This document shows, piece by piece, positions 4,646 to 22,007 of a stretch of DNA of 32,000 nt. The position numbers were made by a program, and so were the translations under genes. The first letter of the stretch is position 1. Every line of letters starts with the position of its first letter. The stretch covers positions 4,774 to 36,773 of the forward strand of contig JAWOFX010000044.1 of the NCBI GenBank assembly GCA_046497275.1. The letters are read 5' to 3'. The notes under the pieces are model-generated. The model saw only the letters and a list, made by a program, of their open reading frames with translations. It was not told the origin of the DNA and ran no database searches. The DNA comes from Promethearchaeia archaeon. GTDB lineage: Archaea > Asgardarchaeota > Lokiarchaeia > Sigyniarchaeales > SOKP01.

Positions 4646-6571
4646 TTATTTTTGTTTGTTTCTGATATATGGCAATTTTCCGCCAGCTCTTAAAATCTCA
4701 GTCATTCTATTACTTAAATTATGAATTACAGGTATTTCAGAATTTTGTGTGAGATTATGTACCATTAATTCTCTTTTCTCAAGAGATTCTAATTCAATTT
4801 CTATCTCATCGTCTTGATCAATAAGATCATAATCATTCAATCTCTGAAAAGTTAAAGGCACAATTCCGAAATTAACAAGATTATCTAAATGGATTCTTGC
4901 AAACGATTTGGCAATAATCGCTTTAATTCCCAAATATTTAGGAGCTATTGCAGCATGTTCTCGACTTGAACCTTGACCATAATTTTCTCCTCCTATAATA
5001 AATCCTCCATCACTTTCCAATGCTCTTTTTGAAAAGCTTGGGTCTATAGGATTGAAAACATATTGACTAATCTCGGGAATGTTACTTCTCAAAGGTAGAA
5101 TTTTTGCTCCCGCAGGCATTATATGATCCGTTGTAATATTATCTTCTACTTTAAGTAATACTTTTCCCTCCAATTTGGCAGCTAACGGAGGAAATTCCGG
5201 TAGAGATTTTATATTAGGCCCTCTGACAATTTGTACATCTTTGGCCTCCCTAGGAGGTAAAGGGGGGATGATCATATTATCATTCACAATGAATTTTTTA
5301 GACATTTGTATTTTAGGAAACTCACCAAATTTCCGAGGATCTGTTATTATTCCTTCGATTGCAGCCATTGCAGCAGTCTCAGGACTTACAAGATATACGC
5401 TAGCACTTTTCGTTCCAGATCTGCCAAGAAAATTTCTATTAAATGTCCTTAAAGACACAGCATCACTTTTAGGAGCTAATCCTTGACCAAGACATGGTCC
5501 ACAAGCATTTTCAAGGATCCTTGCTCCAGCTTCAATAAAATAGGCCATTTCTCCAGAACGAATCATATGGTTCACTACTTGACGAGATCCTGGAGAAATT
5601 GTAAGGACGGTATGTTGACTGATTGTTTTGTTTTTAAGCATATTAGCAGCAATTTTTAAGTCTCTTAGAGAAGAATTTGTACAACTGCCAATACAAACTT
5701 GATCAACATTCAATCCTTCAATTTCATGTATTGGTTTAACATTCCCAGGACTATGAGGTTCAGCTACTAGAGGTTCAAGTTCATCTAAATTAATTTCGAT
5801 AACATCATCATAGATAGCATCCTTATCCGGCTCTAATGAGGTCCACACTTCTTCTCTACTTTGTGCTTCTAAAAATACTCTTGTAATTTCATCCGATGGG
5901 AAAATTGAAGTTGTTGCTCCTGTTTCTGTTCCCATATTAGTGATTGTTGCTCTTTCTGGAACAGAAAGTGTACTAATACCCGGACCAGTATATTCTAATA
6001 TCTTATTTACCGCTCCTTTCACGCCTATTCTTCTTAAAACTTCTAAAATAATATCTTTTGCTGAAACAAATTCAGTCAATCTTCCAGTTAAACGTACATT
6101 AACAATTTCTGGCATTCTAAGATAGAAAGGCTCTCCTGCCATAGCAGCAGCAACATCTAACCCTCCTGATCCGATTGCAATCATTCCTATGCCTCCACAA
6201 GTGGATGTATGACTATCACTGCCTAATAAACTTTTTCCAGGAACAGAGAATCTTTCAAGATGGATTTGATGACATATTCCATTTCCTGGTCGAGAAAAGA
6301 ATAATCCATATTTAGCAGCAATATTCTGAAGATATCTATGATCATCTGCATTTCTAAAATCTGTTTGTAGGATATTATGATCCACATAACTTACGGATAA
6401 TTCCGTTTTTACTCGTGGTACGTCCATTTTTTCGAATTGAAGATATGTCAGCGTCCCTGTTGAATCTTGGGTAAGTGTTTGGTCCATTCTTATTCCAATC
6501 ATTTCACCCTTTTTGGATTCTCCATCGATGAGATGATCCTTTAAGAGCTTTTCCGCAAGTGTGTATCCCAT
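4646..6571 (-). CDS. acn: aconitate hydratase (short ~640-aa single-chain type)
   Basis: DHN, GSDSHT, GSCTN and CGPCLG 4Fe-4S ligands, plus a C-terminal swivel domain with TTDHI and NYGQGSSREHA. Confidence 0.88.
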   Translation of the reverse strand: MGYTLAEKLLKDHLIDGESKKGEMIGIRMDQTLTQDSTGTLTYLQFEKMDVPRVKTELSVSYVDHNILQTDFRNADDHRYLQNIAAKYGLFFSRPGNGICHQIHLERFSVPGKSLLGSDSHTSTCGGIGMIAIGSGGLDVAAAMAGEPFYLRMPEIVNVRLTGRLTEFVSAKDIILEVLRRIGVKGAVNKILEYTGPGISTLSVPERATITNMGTETGATTSIFPSDEITRVFLEAQSREEVWTSLEPDKDAIYDDVIEINLDELEPLVAEPHSPGNVKPIHEIEGLNVDQVCIGSCTNSSLRDLKIAANMLKNKTISQHTVLTISPGSRQVVNHMIRSGEMAYFIEAGARILENACGPCLGQGLAPKSDAVSLRTFNRNFLGRSGTKSASVYLVSPETAAMAAIEGIITDPRKFGEFPKIQMSKKFIVNDNMIIPPLPPREAKDVQIVRGPNIKSLPEFPPLAAKLEGKVLLKVEDNITTDHIMPAGAKILPLRSNIPEISQYVFNPIDPSFSKRALESDGGFIIGGENYGQGSSREHAAIAPKYLGIKAIIAKSFARIHLDNLVNFGIVPLTFQRLNDYDLIDQDDEIEIELESLEKRELMVHNLTQNSEIPVIHNLSNRMTEILRAGGKLPYIRNKQK

Positions 6572-13769: not shown

Positions 13770-14001
13770 ATAAATATAAATTAGTTTTTTATTCTTTTAG
13801 AAATTGGGTTTTTTTTGGATAACCGTGTGACATAATCTCAAAATATATTACTTATTCATAAAAAAACCATAAAAAGAAAAAAAAGACAAATAATAACACC
13901 AAAAATAAAGATTTCTAAAATACCGGCGTATTTTACCGTTATGAAACTGATGATACTATATATTTTCAAGAAAATTCTGAAACTTTCATAAATGAATAAA
14001 T

Positions 14002-14325
14002 ATGGGTCCTTTTAGTGGAAAGGATATTCTACTCAGATGTTTTCGCTGTCGAAAGCTTTTCAGAACGCTTAAAGCGACAAATTGGGACGACTTCAAAAGG
14101 ATCGCCGAAAAAGAAGGAGGAGAAATCTTTCAATGAATTTTCAATAAAATTAGAGAAATTATTTTGATGGATCTTACTCCTTGGGAGAATGCTTCTCTCT
14201 TTATTAGTTATTTTCACTATTTAGAGAAAAAAGGGACTATAAACTTTCCAAATTCCTCATCACCCCCGATCAAATTTTCGCCAAAGAACGATCTTCCTAC
14301 AGAAAAACTAAAAAGAAAAGTGTAA
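14002..14325 (+). pseudogene. 107-codon frame of an unknown family interrupted by TGA at codon 45 (14134-14136); pseudogene, recoded gene or two short ORFs
   Basis: MGPFSGKDILLRCFRCRKLF...EIFQ*IFNKIREIILMDLTPWE...SPPIKFSPKNDLPTEKLKRKV. The part after the TGA matches the C-terminus of ORF 16331-16690 (10 of 19 residues identical). Confidence 0.5.
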
Positions 14326-14353
14326 TTTAATTTCAATAAAATCAAACCACAAA

Positions 14354-14478
14354 GGTATCAAATGAGTCCGAGTAAATTTCTAGTGTTGACTCACAATCTG
14401 CCTATGTATAATATTTGCTAGTAGTGTTACCTAACACCAATTCACGTATTTTTTACGGTCTACAGAGAATTGCACTCT
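14354..14478 (-). ncRNA. putative pseudoknotted structured RNA, copy A (family not recognised)
   Basis: Homologous to 16692-16809. Helices read on the minus strand: GGUGUUAGG/UUUGAUACC, UGAGUC/GACUCA, pseudoknot GUGAAUU/AAUUUAC and 5' hairpin AGAG-N7-CUCU. Confidence 0.6.
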
Positions 14479-14654
14479 TAACAATATATTACTTGAGAGG
14501 GAAAAAAATGAATATTTACCAATCTTTAAATTTCATTTCATTTTTTAATTAACATATTTTTCCTTACAAAAGTTTTTTAAAAACGTTTTACACAATAAGC
14601 CAAGTTTTAAAGGAATTATATAACAAATCATTTATTATAAATCAATAGTAAAAA

Positions 14655-16169
14655 GTGATTTATATGAATCAAAAACTAGAAGAAGAATTAGAAAAAGTAA
14701 TTGAGACTGAGGAATCACAGAAAAAATTTATGAACTATGTAGTACGTTTCGGAAAGTGGCTATTATTTGTATTACCTATCATTTTGGTAATCATCACTAT
14801 CCTAACAATCGTTTTAATTGAGGAGATTCCTGAAGCGACTAAGTGGATTGACTCACCAGTAGATTATAAAATTTTAACCATTTTATATGTAATAGTCTTA
14901 GCGATATATTTTTTCAATTCATTAATATTGATAATAACTTCAAGGAGAACTAATAAATCATTAGAACTTCGATTAGACTATGAAAAAAGAAAAGGAAGAC
15001 CAATCGATAGTCTTGATGGATTCCGATTAGTTATGGATAATATTAATCGTGTATTAATCTTGATGAATATAACAGCCTTAATATCCATAGCATCAGTGAC
15101 ATTATTTGCAATAATGTTAACGATAGGAAATGTCGAGTTAAGTTATATTGCAATGGGAACAACACTTGTAGGATTAGGATTAGCTTTGCTGATAAGAACT
15201 GTTAATTTTAACATAACCGATGTAAATGGTCTTCAAGAATTCTTTGAGCCACTTACCCATAGTATTTTATTAGATAATTTTTTTACTGAAGTTTTTAGTA
15301 ATCATTTAGATCCTGTTACATACTTAAAATGGGATGATTATATACTTGGAATAGAAGATATACTTACTGAAGAATTCGTTCAACTAATTTCTGAAAAAGA
15401 AAAGGAAGAACTTCCAATCACATTCGCTATAGAAAAGATTCTCTTTCTTTATTACCTTAAATATCTAGATGTGTTAACAGAAGAGCAATTTATTCAAGAA
15501 TTTAAAGAAGTTGTAGATTTAGATTCTAAAGATTTCGATATTCAAGATGGATATTGCATCGAAAAAAAATGGGTATTTGCTAAAAAACATATGTATAAAA
15601 TATTTAAATTCATAAAGAAACATAATCCCGAATTTTTCACAATAATAGATAGACTACAACTTGAGTTAGTAGATAATATCGAACGAATTGCTAATGATCC
15701 AATATATTTTGACTCATCTGCCAATGAAGTAGTTAATTTACATTCAGAGCTGAATGTTATGATTATTCTTTATAATAATAGACCCGAACCAAGAGATTAT
15801 AGAATCCGAGTGTATGCTCCCGGATTTGAACCTAAAAAGGTTTCATTAGGTATCGAAGTCGAGGGTAGGGGATCTTTTAAGATTCCCAGTGAAAATATCC
15901 CCTTGGTGTCGGATGGAAGACTGGATATCACGCAAGTTCTCTCCATGATCTTAGAAAATGCAGATACTGTTTGGTTAACACTGGAACCAATAAAAAAGGG
16001 AGAACAAACAATTCAAATCTTCATAGAAACGACCGATGGTCATATTGTTGGAGGTGAAACTAGAACAATAAAAGTCAAAACAAATATTAAAGATTATATC
16101 AAAAAACTTTCTTCTCTCGGCTCTGTTGTAAGTGGAATAGCTGTTGCACTCTCACGAGCTATTTTCTAA
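14655..16169 (+). CDS. hypothetical membrane protein (4 N-terminal TM, helical middle region, beta-rich C-terminal domain)
   Basis: 504-aa ORF with GTG start at 14655 or ATG at 14664. Four hydrophobic segments in the first ~180 aa and alternating beta-like patterning near the C-terminus. Confidence 0.8.
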   Translation: MIYMNQKLEEELEKVIETEESQKKFMNYVVRFGKWLLFVLPIILVIITILTIVLIEEIPEATKWIDSPVDYKILTILYVIVLAIYFFNSLILIITSRRTNKSLELRLDYEKRKGRPIDSLDGFRLVMDNINRVLILMNITALISIASVTLFAIMLTIGNVELSYIAMGTTLVGLGLALLIRTVNFNITDVNGLQEFFEPLTHSILLDNFFTEVFSNHLDPVTYLKWDDYILGIEDILTEEFVQLISEKEKEELPITFAIEKILFLYYLKYLDVLTEEQFIQEFKEVVDLDSKDFDIQDGYCIEKKWVFAKKHMYKIFKFIKKHNPEFFTIIDRLQLELVDNIERIANDPIYFDSSANEVVNLHSELNVMIILYNNRPEPRDYRIRVYAPGFEPKKVSLGIEVEGRGSFKIPSENIPLVSDGRLDITQVLSMILENADTVWLTLEPIKKGEQTIQIFIETTDGHIVGGETRTIKVKTNIKDYIKKLSSLGSVVSGIAVALSRAIF

Positions 16170-16330
16170 ACTTTATTTAAGTATTTTATTTTTGTTTTTT
16201 TTTAGCAGATTTAATGAGTATGAGTATTATTTCTTTTAGGATACCAATCTCTATGAAATTTGAATATGTCTAGAATAAAAATCTAATTAAAATACTTACA
16301 TTTTAAGAAAAATAATTAGGAAAACGGAAA

Positions 16331-16690
16331 TTGGTTGATAAGGGAGTCAAACATAATGGATTATTCCGCTTAAGAAATTGTCATATTATTCACGGAGATA
16401 CCAATGGTGCGGGAAACATCGACAGAAAGAAACATCCAGATCTCTTTTCAATTGAGATAATCGCCTACAATTTTGGTTTAAATTCAGAATTTTACCTTGC
16501 ATATAATTTTCTCCCCGATCATTTGAAATCTAAACATAAAACATTGACTCACTCAGAGAGAAGAAGATTTAAAAGTTTGGTTAATAGATTTTTGATGAGT
16601 CCCCGAATTTTATTTAGTCCGTCGAACGGAATACTCATAAAAGAGTTAAAAAGAGAAGAAAGGCTAAATAAAAGTAAGATTAGAAAATAA
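16331..16690 (+). CDS. 119-aa basic hypothetical protein, homologous at the C-terminus to the 14002 frame
   Basis: TTG start. SPRILFSPSNGILIKELKR matches SPPIKFSPKNDLPTEKLKR, including Ser codons switched between AGT and TCN, which points to protein-level conservation. Confidence 0.6.
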   Translation: MVDKGVKHNGLFRLRNCHIIHGDTNGAGNIDRKKHPDLFSIEIIAYNFGLNSEFYLAYNFLPDHLKSKHKTLTHSERRRFKSLVNRFLMSPRILFSPSNGILIKELKREERLNKSKIRK

Positions 16691-16691
16691 A

Positions 16692-16809
16692 AGTATCAGA
16701 TGAGTTCAAGTAAATTCCTTTCAATTACTCAAACTGCATATACTTAAATAATAGTTTTACCTAATACCAATTCACTTACTTTTTGCGGTTCTTAGAGATG
16801 TACGCTCTA
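16692..16809 (-). ncRNA. putative pseudoknotted structured RNA, copy B
   Basis: GGUAUUAGG (16768-16760)/UCUGAUACU (16700-16692); UGAGU/ACUCA; pseudoknot GUGAAUU (16775-16769)/AAUUUAC (16716-16710); hairpin UAGAG-N7-CUCUA (16809-16793). Confidence 0.6.
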
Positions 16810-16875
16810 AAAAATGCATAAATTTCTTACAATTCGATATTAAGTTTCAAAATAATAAATATAGAAAAAAAGAGA

Positions 16876-20546: not shown

Positions 20547-22007
20547 ATGACAGACTATTTTCGAAAAAAAATACATTATAATGATATTATCGCGACATTT
20601 GACGATATTTTAATTTTACCAGGGTATACTCAATCATATGAAGTTGATATTTCCGCTAAATTAGATAAGTATCATTTTAAAATCCCAATTATGACGGCTG
20701 CTATGGATACAGTGACAGAAGAGGAAATGGCCATAAAGATGGCTCTTCTCGGGGGGCTTGGAGTTCTACACCGAAATTGTTCTTATGAAAAACAATTAGA
20801 AATGTGTAAAAATGTAAAACGAGCACGCTCTTTTATAATCCGTGATGTTGCCACTATTGATGTAAATGCACCGGTTAGAAAAGCAAAACATTTGATGGAA
20901 AATACTGGGATTAGTGGACTTGTGGTCTTAAATAACGAAAATAAGGTTTGTGGGATCTTTACTAAACGAGATATTCCCTATTCAGAAGAGGAAGCACGTA
21001 AAGGAAAAGTTAAAGATTATATGACACGGGATCTAATTTCTATCGAACCAAATGTTTCAAGACAAGAAGCATTGGATGTACTCTATAAAAATAGAATAGA
21101 AAAGCTCCCAATTATTGAAGACGGATACTTGAGAGGGTTAATAACCAAAAAAGACTTGAAGCCTGAATTTCCTCATGCATCTATCGATAAGGAGGGTCGA
21201 TTATTATGTGCATTAGCAATCAGTCCAAAAATGCCTGAATCTAGTTCGACTCAAAAAAGACTAAAAGAAATTGATCAATTTGTTGATATTTTCTTTATTG
21301 ATGTTGCTGATTTTTATAAAGAGAAGGATATAGAGAGTGTTAAAAAGCTAATGGAATTTTTAGAATCGGAATTTGTACTTGGAAACATAGGCACCTATGA
21401 AGCTGCAGAACATCTTCTCTCAAAATGTGACTTTTTTGAAGATCGTTTTATTGGAATAAAAGTTGGAATGGGCTCGGGCTCAATTTGTTCAACTTCAATT
21501 CAAACTGGGGTTGGTGCTCCCACATTATTCGCAACTGCGCAAGTGGCTGATGCTATAAAAGATTATAACTCCAATATAGGATTAATTGCTGATGGAGGGT
21601 TTAAAAATCCTGGCGATTTACCTAAAGCATTTTCGGTTGGAGCAGATATGATCATGTCGGGTCATTTTTTTGCTGGCTGTACAGAAAGTCCTGGATATAT
21701 TGATACAATTCAAGGACGCAAGGTTAAAGTATATAGGGGAATGGGTTCTAAGGAAGCTAGGACCACTAATTATGTCCTTGATAGATATGTGGAAGGCGCA
21801 AAAACTTTGCCAGAAGGCGTATCAGATTATGTTCCTTATGTGGGCGAAGTATCTGGAGTTATAGAATCTCTTACTGAAGGACTCTCAAACGGAATGATCT
21901 ATGCTGGAGCACGGAATATAGACGAAATGAAAAACAATAAAATTGGTTTAGTAAGTGCTGTGGGGATGATTGAACAGAAACCACACGATCTGTTAGGAAA
22001 ATACTAA
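20547..22007 (+). CDS. guaB: IMP dehydrogenase with CBS pair (GMP reductase not fully excluded)
   Basis: TFDDILILP, AAMDTVT, GGLGVLH, two CBS domains, catalytic loop GMGSGSICST, IADGG, YRGMGS, flap RY and PEG. Confidence 0.78.
   Translation: MTDYFRKKIHYNDIIATFDDILILPGYTQSYEVDISAKLDKYHFKIPIMTAAMDTVTEEEMAIKMALLGGLGVLHRNCSYEKQLEMCKNVKRARSFIIRDVATIDVNAPVRKAKHLMENTGISGLVVLNNENKVCGIFTKRDIPYSEEEARKGKVKDYMTRDLISIEPNVSRQEALDVLYKNRIEKLPIIEDGYLRGLITKKDLKPEFPHASIDKEGRLLCALAISPKMPESSSTQKRLKEIDQFVDIFFIDVADFYKEKDIESVKKLMEFLESEFVLGNIGTYEAAEHLLSKCDFFEDRFIGIKVGMGSGSICSTSIQTGVGAPTLFATAQVADAIKDYNSNIGLIADGGFKNPGDLPKAFSVGADMIMSGHFFAGCTESPGYIDTIQGRKVKVYRGMGSKEARTTNYVLDRYVEGAKTLPEGVSDYVPYVGEVSGVIESLTEGLSNGMIYAGARNIDEMKNNKIGLVSAVGMIEQKPHDLLGKY

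Follow-up and report, generated by a model that had tools for sequence, protein, structure and literature searches.

Two small-ORF-plus-RNA modules in a Lokiarchaeal genome are probably decayed right ends of a TnpB mobile element, one at the edge of a 3-kb gene-carrying insertion

Why should a membrane-protein gene of a Lokiarchaeal genome be flanked by two copies of a small open reading frame (ORF), each followed by a conserved, structured sequence? The question is raised by a stretch of 32,000 nucleotides (positions 4,774 to 36,773 of contig JAWOFX010000044.1, assembly GCA_046497275.1), all of which is referred to here as the window. A first-pass annotation had read each copy as a small protein paired with an antisense structured RNA, under joint selection, and had considered a toxin-antitoxin-like pair, a small ribonucleoprotein or a mobile element enclosing the gene. 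Our analysis indicates that both modules are, in all likelihood, decayed right-end (3') stubs of a multicopy TnpB mobile element of this Lokiarchaeal genus, and that the second of them forms the edge of a 3-kb insertion with the gene inside it.

Much of the described layout is confirmed. Copy A (~13942 to 14489; stub A) and copy B (~16331 to 16819; stub B) have the same, direct orientation and align over their terminal ~135 nt at ~70% identity (blastn, E 5e-9). The peptide S-P-x-I-x-F-S-P-x-N...L-K-R common to both is significant when A is compared against B (BLASTP, E 2e-4), GTATCA (14355; 16693) follows the Arg codon (14314-14316; 16652-16654) after exactly 38 nt in each, and a 504-aa ORF (14655-16169) lies between them. 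The module ends had been placed at 14478 and 16809 and need to be moved outwards, the conserved unit reaching 14489 and 16819. A search for further copies found the same sequence at 13 loci of the genome, with blastn E values of 1e-12 to 3e-30 for the terminal parts of A and B, and more in metagenomes and in two element-bearing sister species (G002 and G043), where most copies are located at contig ends.

Besides the window, the genome contains 11 tnpB loci, of which at least five have complete ORFs and several more are interrupted by contig ends; the element is 2.3-5.5 kb long. Complete loci have a 759-878 aa ORF with the peptide S-P-P-I-K-F-S-P-S-N-G-I-P-T-K-E-L-K-R-K close to its end, and the full C-termini read ...TTPPIKFSPSNGIPTKELKRKERLNKSKxxPQRYQMSPxxFLxMTxxAYV before the stop. 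The intact ORFs traverse both the supposed 38-nt spacer and GTATCAAATGAGTCC (R-Y-Q-M-S-P), with ~13 further codons to the stop, and it is because intact copies translate through that stretch (...KRKERLNKSKxxPQRYQMSP...AYV) that the spacing is fixed. The encoded proteins match Pfam OrfB_IS605 (36.6 bits against a cut-off of 30.5; 6e-9) and NCBIfam guided_TnpB (E 5e-19 to 2.6e-21, under its curated 100-bit cut-off), while the Pfam Cas12f1-like TNB domain scores 28.4 bits in the 878-aa copy (cut-off 26.3) and 22.2 in the 759-aa copy. The motifs ISIDFGVNN, PEWYTSKC and HGDINGAANI are unchanged in all six full copies, and by comparison with the familiar TnpB motifs they are putatively RuvC I, II and III, respectively. 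Stub B retains the third motif only and stub A none of the three.

Searches of PDB sequences with a single protein and with a profile returned no match, and a search of genome contigs for related loci found no relative. A metagenomic relative of 1,819 aa shares 80% identity over 864 residues, and the copies in this genome are therefore themselves 5'-shortened. Pfam RVP (retroviral-protease) was matched only by P0122, weakly (19 bits against a cut-off of 20.7), and we do not build on it; P0122 has only the N-terminal extension in common with the 878-aa copy. Across seven copies of tnpB, synonymous-codon identity in 20-codon windows is 0.63-0.89 and amino-acid identity 0.50-0.92. This similarity of the two measures suggests, from the aligned codons, that purifying selection on TnpB is weak, though 2.3-kb frames remain open.

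Both window modules can be placed on this gene. The 119-aa 'ORF' of stub B (16331..16690, + strand) corresponds to the last ~115 tnpB codons, with HGDTNGAGNI (putative RuvC-III) and the tail SPRILFSPSNGILIKELKR; it aligns to residues 763-858 of the 878-aa copy at 50% identity (BLASTP, E 2e-30), but has 18 codons inserted and stops prematurely. By homology, ORF B is a RuvC-III/C-terminal fragment of TnpB. Stub A begins with an internal tnpB remnant (13942..14242, + strand) equivalent to ~1512-1809 of the 2667-nt reference element C108, with 72-74% identity to the C108, C118, C92 and C30 copies (blastn) and a stop in frame at 14134-14136. Its translation, LRCFRCRKLF..NWDDFKRIAEKEGG..Q-stop-IFNKIREIILMDLTPWEN..YFHYLEKKG, can be aligned with intact TnpB. 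A deletion of ~600 bp then fuses this ~300-nt internal piece to a remnant of the TnpB C-terminal tail (SSPPIKFSPKNDLPTEKLKRKV, then stop; junction and tail at 14243..14325, + strand), and 'ORF A' is accordingly a pseudogene that has an internal deletion and contains a stop codon. Internally deleted copies of the same kind occur in the metagenome contigs L111 and L113. The two N-termini had been described as versions of one sequence diverged almost beyond recognition. They are instead different parts of one long gene, because A keeps an internal piece and B the contiguous last ~115 codons, and the small ORFs are tnpB leftovers without a function of their own.

This bears directly on the idea that a conserved small protein is maintained as a functional pair with a structured antisense RNA, which we now consider very improbable. 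Since the ORFs are tnpB fragments, of differing extent and one with an internal stop, there is no conserved small protein and hence no toxin-antitoxin-like pair or small ribonucleoprotein. Nor is the adjoining 'RNA element' wholly non-coding, its first third being plus-strand coding in intact copies, and neither Rfam nor Pfam holds a match for such a pair. What speaks for the pair is the minus-strand fold: a 7-bp GGUAUUA/UGAUACC helix with 15 one-sided changes, all of which keep a G.U pair, and a copy B minus strand that folds better than its shuffles (z -2.3). Against this, no pair has changed on both sides, so covariation is absent, and copy A folds no better than shuffles on either strand (z -0.1). 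Something of the idea of a protein–RNA unit does survive, in that the modules derive from TnpB and a putative guide-RNA scaffold, but the small ORFs are merely fragments of a 759-878 aa gene.

The 3' end of the element comprises the TnpB C-terminal coding tail and about 130-165 nt of conserved non-coding sequence, up to the invariant ...AAATGCAT. In intact elements, conservation at the DNA level takes in the last ~20 codons and the next ~130 nt. In all 26 aligned copies, drawn from three genomes of the genus, homology ends at ...CTCTTAAAAATGCAT (ATGCAT; ATATAT in stub A), and beyond this terminus the flanks are unrelated among all 26. Of 17 metagenome copies extending this far, most share the ATGCAT boundary. 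In the window, the conserved 3' end of stub A occupies 14326..14489 (+ strand), as delimited by the alignment and its per-segment identity, and inter-copy homology ceases at 14489; that of stub B occupies 16691..16819 (+ strand) and terminates in the family-invariant AAAAATGCAT. If an omega-RNA were made from these ends, the would-be guides would be read from 14490..14509 for stub A and 16820..16839 for stub B (both + strand), the latter being ancestral intergenic DNA that aligns to the corresponding G043 spacer.

A plus-strand consensus model is 94.5% paired and contains a long hairpin (CACA-GGU-GAGUC/GACUC-GCC-UGUG), a CAC-loop-GUG hairpin, an AGAG/CUCU hairpin and a possible GUGCA/UGCAU pseudoknot; a minus-strand model, with the long-range GGUAUUA/UGAUACC helix, is 97.8% paired. 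Neither strand shows covariation above shuffle controls in consensus folds or pair counts, and among the single-sequence folds only the minus strand of copy B beats its shuffles. The CAC-loop-GTG hairpin has GNRA loops in 16 of the 26 copies, and its variants in metagenome copies include CACA-GCGA-TGTG, CACA-GCAA-TGTG and an 8-bp stem whose U.G pair is compatible with the plus strand only. To our knowledge, all characterised TnpB and Fanzor RNAs are of the sense strand. The RNA part has no match in Rfam, either at the gathering threshold or at E<=10, and no tRNA or tmRNA was found. In related systems the omega-RNA is encoded at the TnpB right end and its guide is taken from the flank (PMC10055086, PMC10530073). 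By analogy, the conserved end is most likely a sense-strand omega-RNA scaffold, a prediction in which the plus strand is fairly probably the transcribed one. The antisense orientation proposed earlier finds no support in the biology of the family or in the GNRA-loop hairpin, although the pair counts do not exclude the minus strand: they cannot separate the strands, and the 7-bp long-range helix of the minus strand is paired in 98.9% of cells, which tells against our assignment.

The same conserved end might alternatively be a DNA signal for a transposition machinery and not an RNA gene. Palindromes (GTGCAC, ATGCAT) would suit such a signal, as would a hairpin lying 11 nt short of the end and the fact that helices are possible on both strands, as DNA hairpins would give. 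Synonymous-site identity along tnpB also shows no clear increase over the C-terminal tail. However, the characterised TnpB and Fanzor nucleases all use RNA from exactly this position (PMC10530073, PMC10055086), and the GNRA loops and length variants of the hairpin suggest RNA. A role as DNA alone is thus rather improbable, while DNA and RNA roles are compatible with one another.

Are the stubs still in use? Over the last 235 nt, the window copies have 75% identity to the family consensus, compared with 81-91% for 21 of the 24 others and 77% for the lowest of the 24, making them the most decayed of the 26 aligned copies; the joint selection once proposed for them does not fit this. In the stretch that is best conserved elsewhere (0.86-0.97) they reach 0.76. 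The 3' half of the GNRA hairpin is missing from both, so that neither retains the CAC-GNRA-GTG structure, and stub A lacks the terminal ATGCAT as well, its terminus now being ATATAT. In stub B the coding remnant (78.6%) is no less conserved than the RNA part (69%), and therefore no selective retention of the RNA is seen. Some constraint is nonetheless visible there: the long hairpin is retained in A (14348-14408) and in B (16686-16744), and in B the outer stem has gone from CACA/UGUG to AAUA/UACU with three of four pairs kept through two double changes.

It follows that working stand-alone guide-RNA genes (PATE-type or 'ghost' omega-RNAs), loaded in trans by intact TnpB paralogues and guided by the adjoining DNA, are an unlikely description of the stubs. 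Gene-less omega-RNA elements used in trans have been described (PMC10055086), 11 further tnpB loci with at least five complete ORFs are available to serve them, and the long hairpin H1 persists in both stubs, in B by way of the double changes C-G to A-U and C-G to U-A. The divergence of the stubs falls, however, chiefly in the stretch best conserved elsewhere, the GNRA hairpin is gone from both and ATGCAT from A, and there is no RNA contig over the stubs, which is weak evidence. A search for second genomic targets of the two would-be guides gave chance-level matches only, leaving the guides without another genomic match. An exact 12-nt match (TACTTGAGAGGG) to the first 12 nt of the stub A guide does lie at 21126-21137 of the window; ~0.5 such matches are expected by chance. 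The stubs are probably not still in use.

How the modules came to flank a gene can be read from the sister species. The distance from the CoA-transferase gene to the phosphoesterase gene is 74 bp in G043 (C26) and 93 bp in G002 (C227), where the two genes are adjacent and the site is empty, and 3,106 bp here. The segment 13782..16819 (+ strand; 3.04 kb), which comprises stub A, the 504-aa gene and stub B, is absent from the orthologous spacer of both species and is an insertion relative to them, its right edge falling exactly at the terminus of stub B. The ancestral spacer aligns to 16820-16875, directly past the ATGCAT of B, and ~11 nt of it are left beside the CoA-transferase start. Target-site duplications had been suggested as something to look for, and the block is indeed bracketed by ATAAAT: the left repeat is at 13776..13781, with another ATAAAT at 13770-13775, and the right repeat is at 16818..16823, overlapping the element end by its first two bases. 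In G043 and G002 just one ATAAAT-like stretch occurs, and the sequence directly after it is that found after 16823 in the window. Two DNA runs from another study have the same arrangement as the window.

The gene therefore does lie inside an inserted segment that ends at B, as the notion of a mobile element enclosing it had implied, but this is not a composite transposon, both copies being right-end stubs in direct orientation with no recognised left end. Within the block, the 12-nt sequence AATATATTACTT at 13842..13853 recurs at 14482-14493, across the end of stub A. It is possible, judging by these letters, that the pair is the target duplication of a nested insertion of A; 12-mer repeats are not rare in AT-rich DNA, and the significance of this one lies in its position at the end of A. 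TTACT is found upstream of stub A.

The gene within the block (14655..16169, + strand) belongs to a Lokiarchaeal core-like family that is represented in 45 of the 61 genomes sampled from the taxonomic family; the copy here is divergent and additional to the syntenic one. In the genus, that syntenic copy adjoins two MetF-like genes (G043:C14, G002:C380, G000:C103) and in this genome is a pseudogene broken by stops (G000:C103:11744-13242; locus L092:3236-4570). The window copy has 72-77% identity to its nearest relatives, and a quick tree places it inside the G043-type group, apart from the C103 pseudogene (SH-aLRT 98). The divergent window copy together with the broken C103 copy suggests that the extra copy came with the block and that the native one decayed. 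The window copy is intact and is represented in RNA libraries, whose contigs span 14574-16224, and contigs end at a T-run behind the gene (16190..16203, + strand) with adapter sequence, the loose ends at 16203/16205 in X4 and X5 carrying Illumina adapter letters.

Elsewhere in the family, the right end is constant and the left ends vary. There are 1,819-aa, 878/842-aa and 759-775-aa forms, and stubs of ~680, 600, 475, 250 and 210 nt. At least seven copies, belonging to one subgroup, start with another 5' module, which bears a Cys-rich ORF on the strand opposite tnpB; chimeric copies therefore multiply. The Cys-rich ORF is ~112-128 aa long (FHFCSYCKKF.NC.CIPPYP.CK) and is found at G000:C92:7382-7717 (L031:452-787, minus strand) and on C71, C116, C18, C118, C133 and C134. 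The C92 copy has TATGA on both sides and the ancestral site in G043 a single TATGA, and a 210-nt orphan (G43_C56) is flanked by ATATGG. Terminal direct repeats are absent at C25, C108, L119, L113, G2_C145 and G43_C126, and a TTAAG/TTAAA repeat at C71 is rejected, the upstream homology extending further in C116, C18, L115 and L121. The left junctions have no common motif and no target-adjacent motif (TAM) can be defined; the empty-site comparisons for G43_C56 and G2_C145 are too diverged for a clean reading. A search for Y1 TnpA (PF01797) found no match in this genome, which is 98.9% complete, whereas control genomes do match.

Three further observations were made at these loci. L041:1-40 and L053:1-40 (G002:C366 and G002:C229) start with ...AATGCAT and continue into a truncated element unit (ATCCGATCAAG...), so that an element end abuts the interior of another copy and nested or tandem copies exist in G002. 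At the site corresponding to C92, G043 (L095:1027-1362, on G043:C104) carries ~330 nt of unrelated inserted DNA, after which the last codons of the upstream gene recur over ~30 nt; this place may have received a second, different insertion. The genome also encodes two ORFs of ~1,025 aa with an RVT_1 domain (G000:C81:1063-1812, E 3e-34; G000:C10:2966-3724, E 2e-33); these reverse-transcriptase ORFs have no known link to the element and would be relevant if 5'-variable copies arise through RNA.

A bolder reading, which we hold to be rather less likely than not, is that the giant-TnpB element spreads in a manner unlike that of IS200/IS605. The process would be fixed at the right end, yield copies whose 5' ends differ and whose target duplications are short and variable, and be able to continue into host DNA upstream; here it would have transduced a complete, expressed membrane-protein gene. 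The 3' end of an intact element would be transcribed in the sense direction as an omega-RNA, its guide coming from the flank past ATGCAT as in TnpB and Fanzor systems. Copying anchored at the right end would run from stub B into upstream donor DNA and take the 504-aa gene along as a passenger, so that the gene and stub B, with or without A, would arrive as one unit. Stub A would be a later, nested and truncated insertion, and the incoming gene would replace the native copy that is now the pseudogene on C103. This sequence of events (passenger arrival of the gene with stub B, nesting of A and replacement of the native copy) is the most economical when set against stepwise assembly, and we would give it about an even chance.

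Several observations weigh against these proposals. The left 160 nt of the block (13782-13941) have no match of any kind, and no left end was recognised for either copy. Terminal direct repeats were found at only 4 of ~10 evaluable copies. No donor locus with the gene and stub B together was found, and an exact search of the metagenome contigs for the junction of the gene's 3' flank with stub B gave 0 matches. The tree is a quick one in which the window gene sits on a long branch, and in two RNA libraries the contigs span the 504-aa gene and neither stub, a result that is uninformative for small RNAs.

The missing donor is equally what would be expected if the block had been assembled in place. 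A long element would have inserted first, giving the ATAAAT repeats and the B end, and later, unrelated events (recombination or another insertion) would have added the gene and A and removed the greater part of tnpB. The family often shows internal deletions (stub A; L111, L113), nested or tandem arrangements are present in G002, and the 3.04-kb block is near the 2.7-kb length of an element. On the other hand, several extra events would be needed, and a complete, promoter-bearing host gene would have to enter the element without traces, while copies made chimeric by a foreign 5' module, and bearing terminal repeats, do exist and have multiplied. We regard assembly in place as conceivable but doubtful.

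If the passenger account is true, a TnpB-family element near the eukaryotic stem lineage moves host genes, and in this Asgard archaeon a TnpB-bearing element would have transduced one. The insertion pattern (a fixed right end, a variable left end, short duplications and no Y1) would in addition bear on the way in which TnpB- and Fanzor-type nucleases ride many kinds of transposon. A false lead is also removed, since there is no new small-protein/antisense-RNA system here; the 3' ends of TnpB elements easily pass for modules of an ORF plus a structured RNA.

Among known systems, the closest comparison is with IS200/IS605 TnpB and its omega-RNA (ISDra2, G. stearothermophilus ISGst; PMC10055086, PMC10097598). 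Both have a TnpB-family RuvC nuclease, a structured conserved region that extends over the gene's 3' end as far as a sharp boundary, copy-specific flanks of the kind expected of a guide, and many copies without a transposase. The element differs in that its protein is 2-4 times larger and no Y1 TnpA was found in the 98.9%-complete genome. It differs also in how it inserts: IS200/IS605 makes no duplication and has a fixed adjoining motif, whereas here the 5' ends are variable and short target repeats are present at several copies. At the block and at C92, where the ATAAAT and TATGA repeats were checked against element-free sites, the insertion is not of the IS200/IS605 type. The large TnpB relatives of the TnpB2/Fanzor type share an enlarged nuclease and have a non-coding RNA mapped beside the right end, where the putative scaffold lies here, and some Fanzors travel in transposons that make target duplications (PMC10530073). 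TnpB2 is defined by a rearranged RuvC-II glutamate, and PEWYTSKC appears canonical in position.

The window stubs resemble PATE-like derivatives and stand-alone omega-RNAs (PMC10055086) in that both are right-end modules without a working nuclease gene, with intact tnpB elsewhere in the genome. PATEs have both ends and an intact scaffold and are mobile, whereas the stubs are 5'-truncated or internally deleted, with a decayed scaffold and no left end. With regard to the capture of the gene, the pattern is that of systems with one fixed end. Such capture is familiar from Helitrons, from IS91/ISCR read-through, from one-ended transposition in the Tn3 family and from 5'-truncated long interspersed elements (LINEs). 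The constant 3' end, the variable 5' ends and the host genes upstream of the fixed end are common features, and some of these systems make short target duplications; no Rep/HUH protein, DDE transposase or reverse transcriptase is linked to the element, so that the resemblance is one of pattern only. The window modules are thus of a known kind of element, and what is new is the 3-kb gene-carrying insertion and an insertion pattern unlike that of IS200/IS605.

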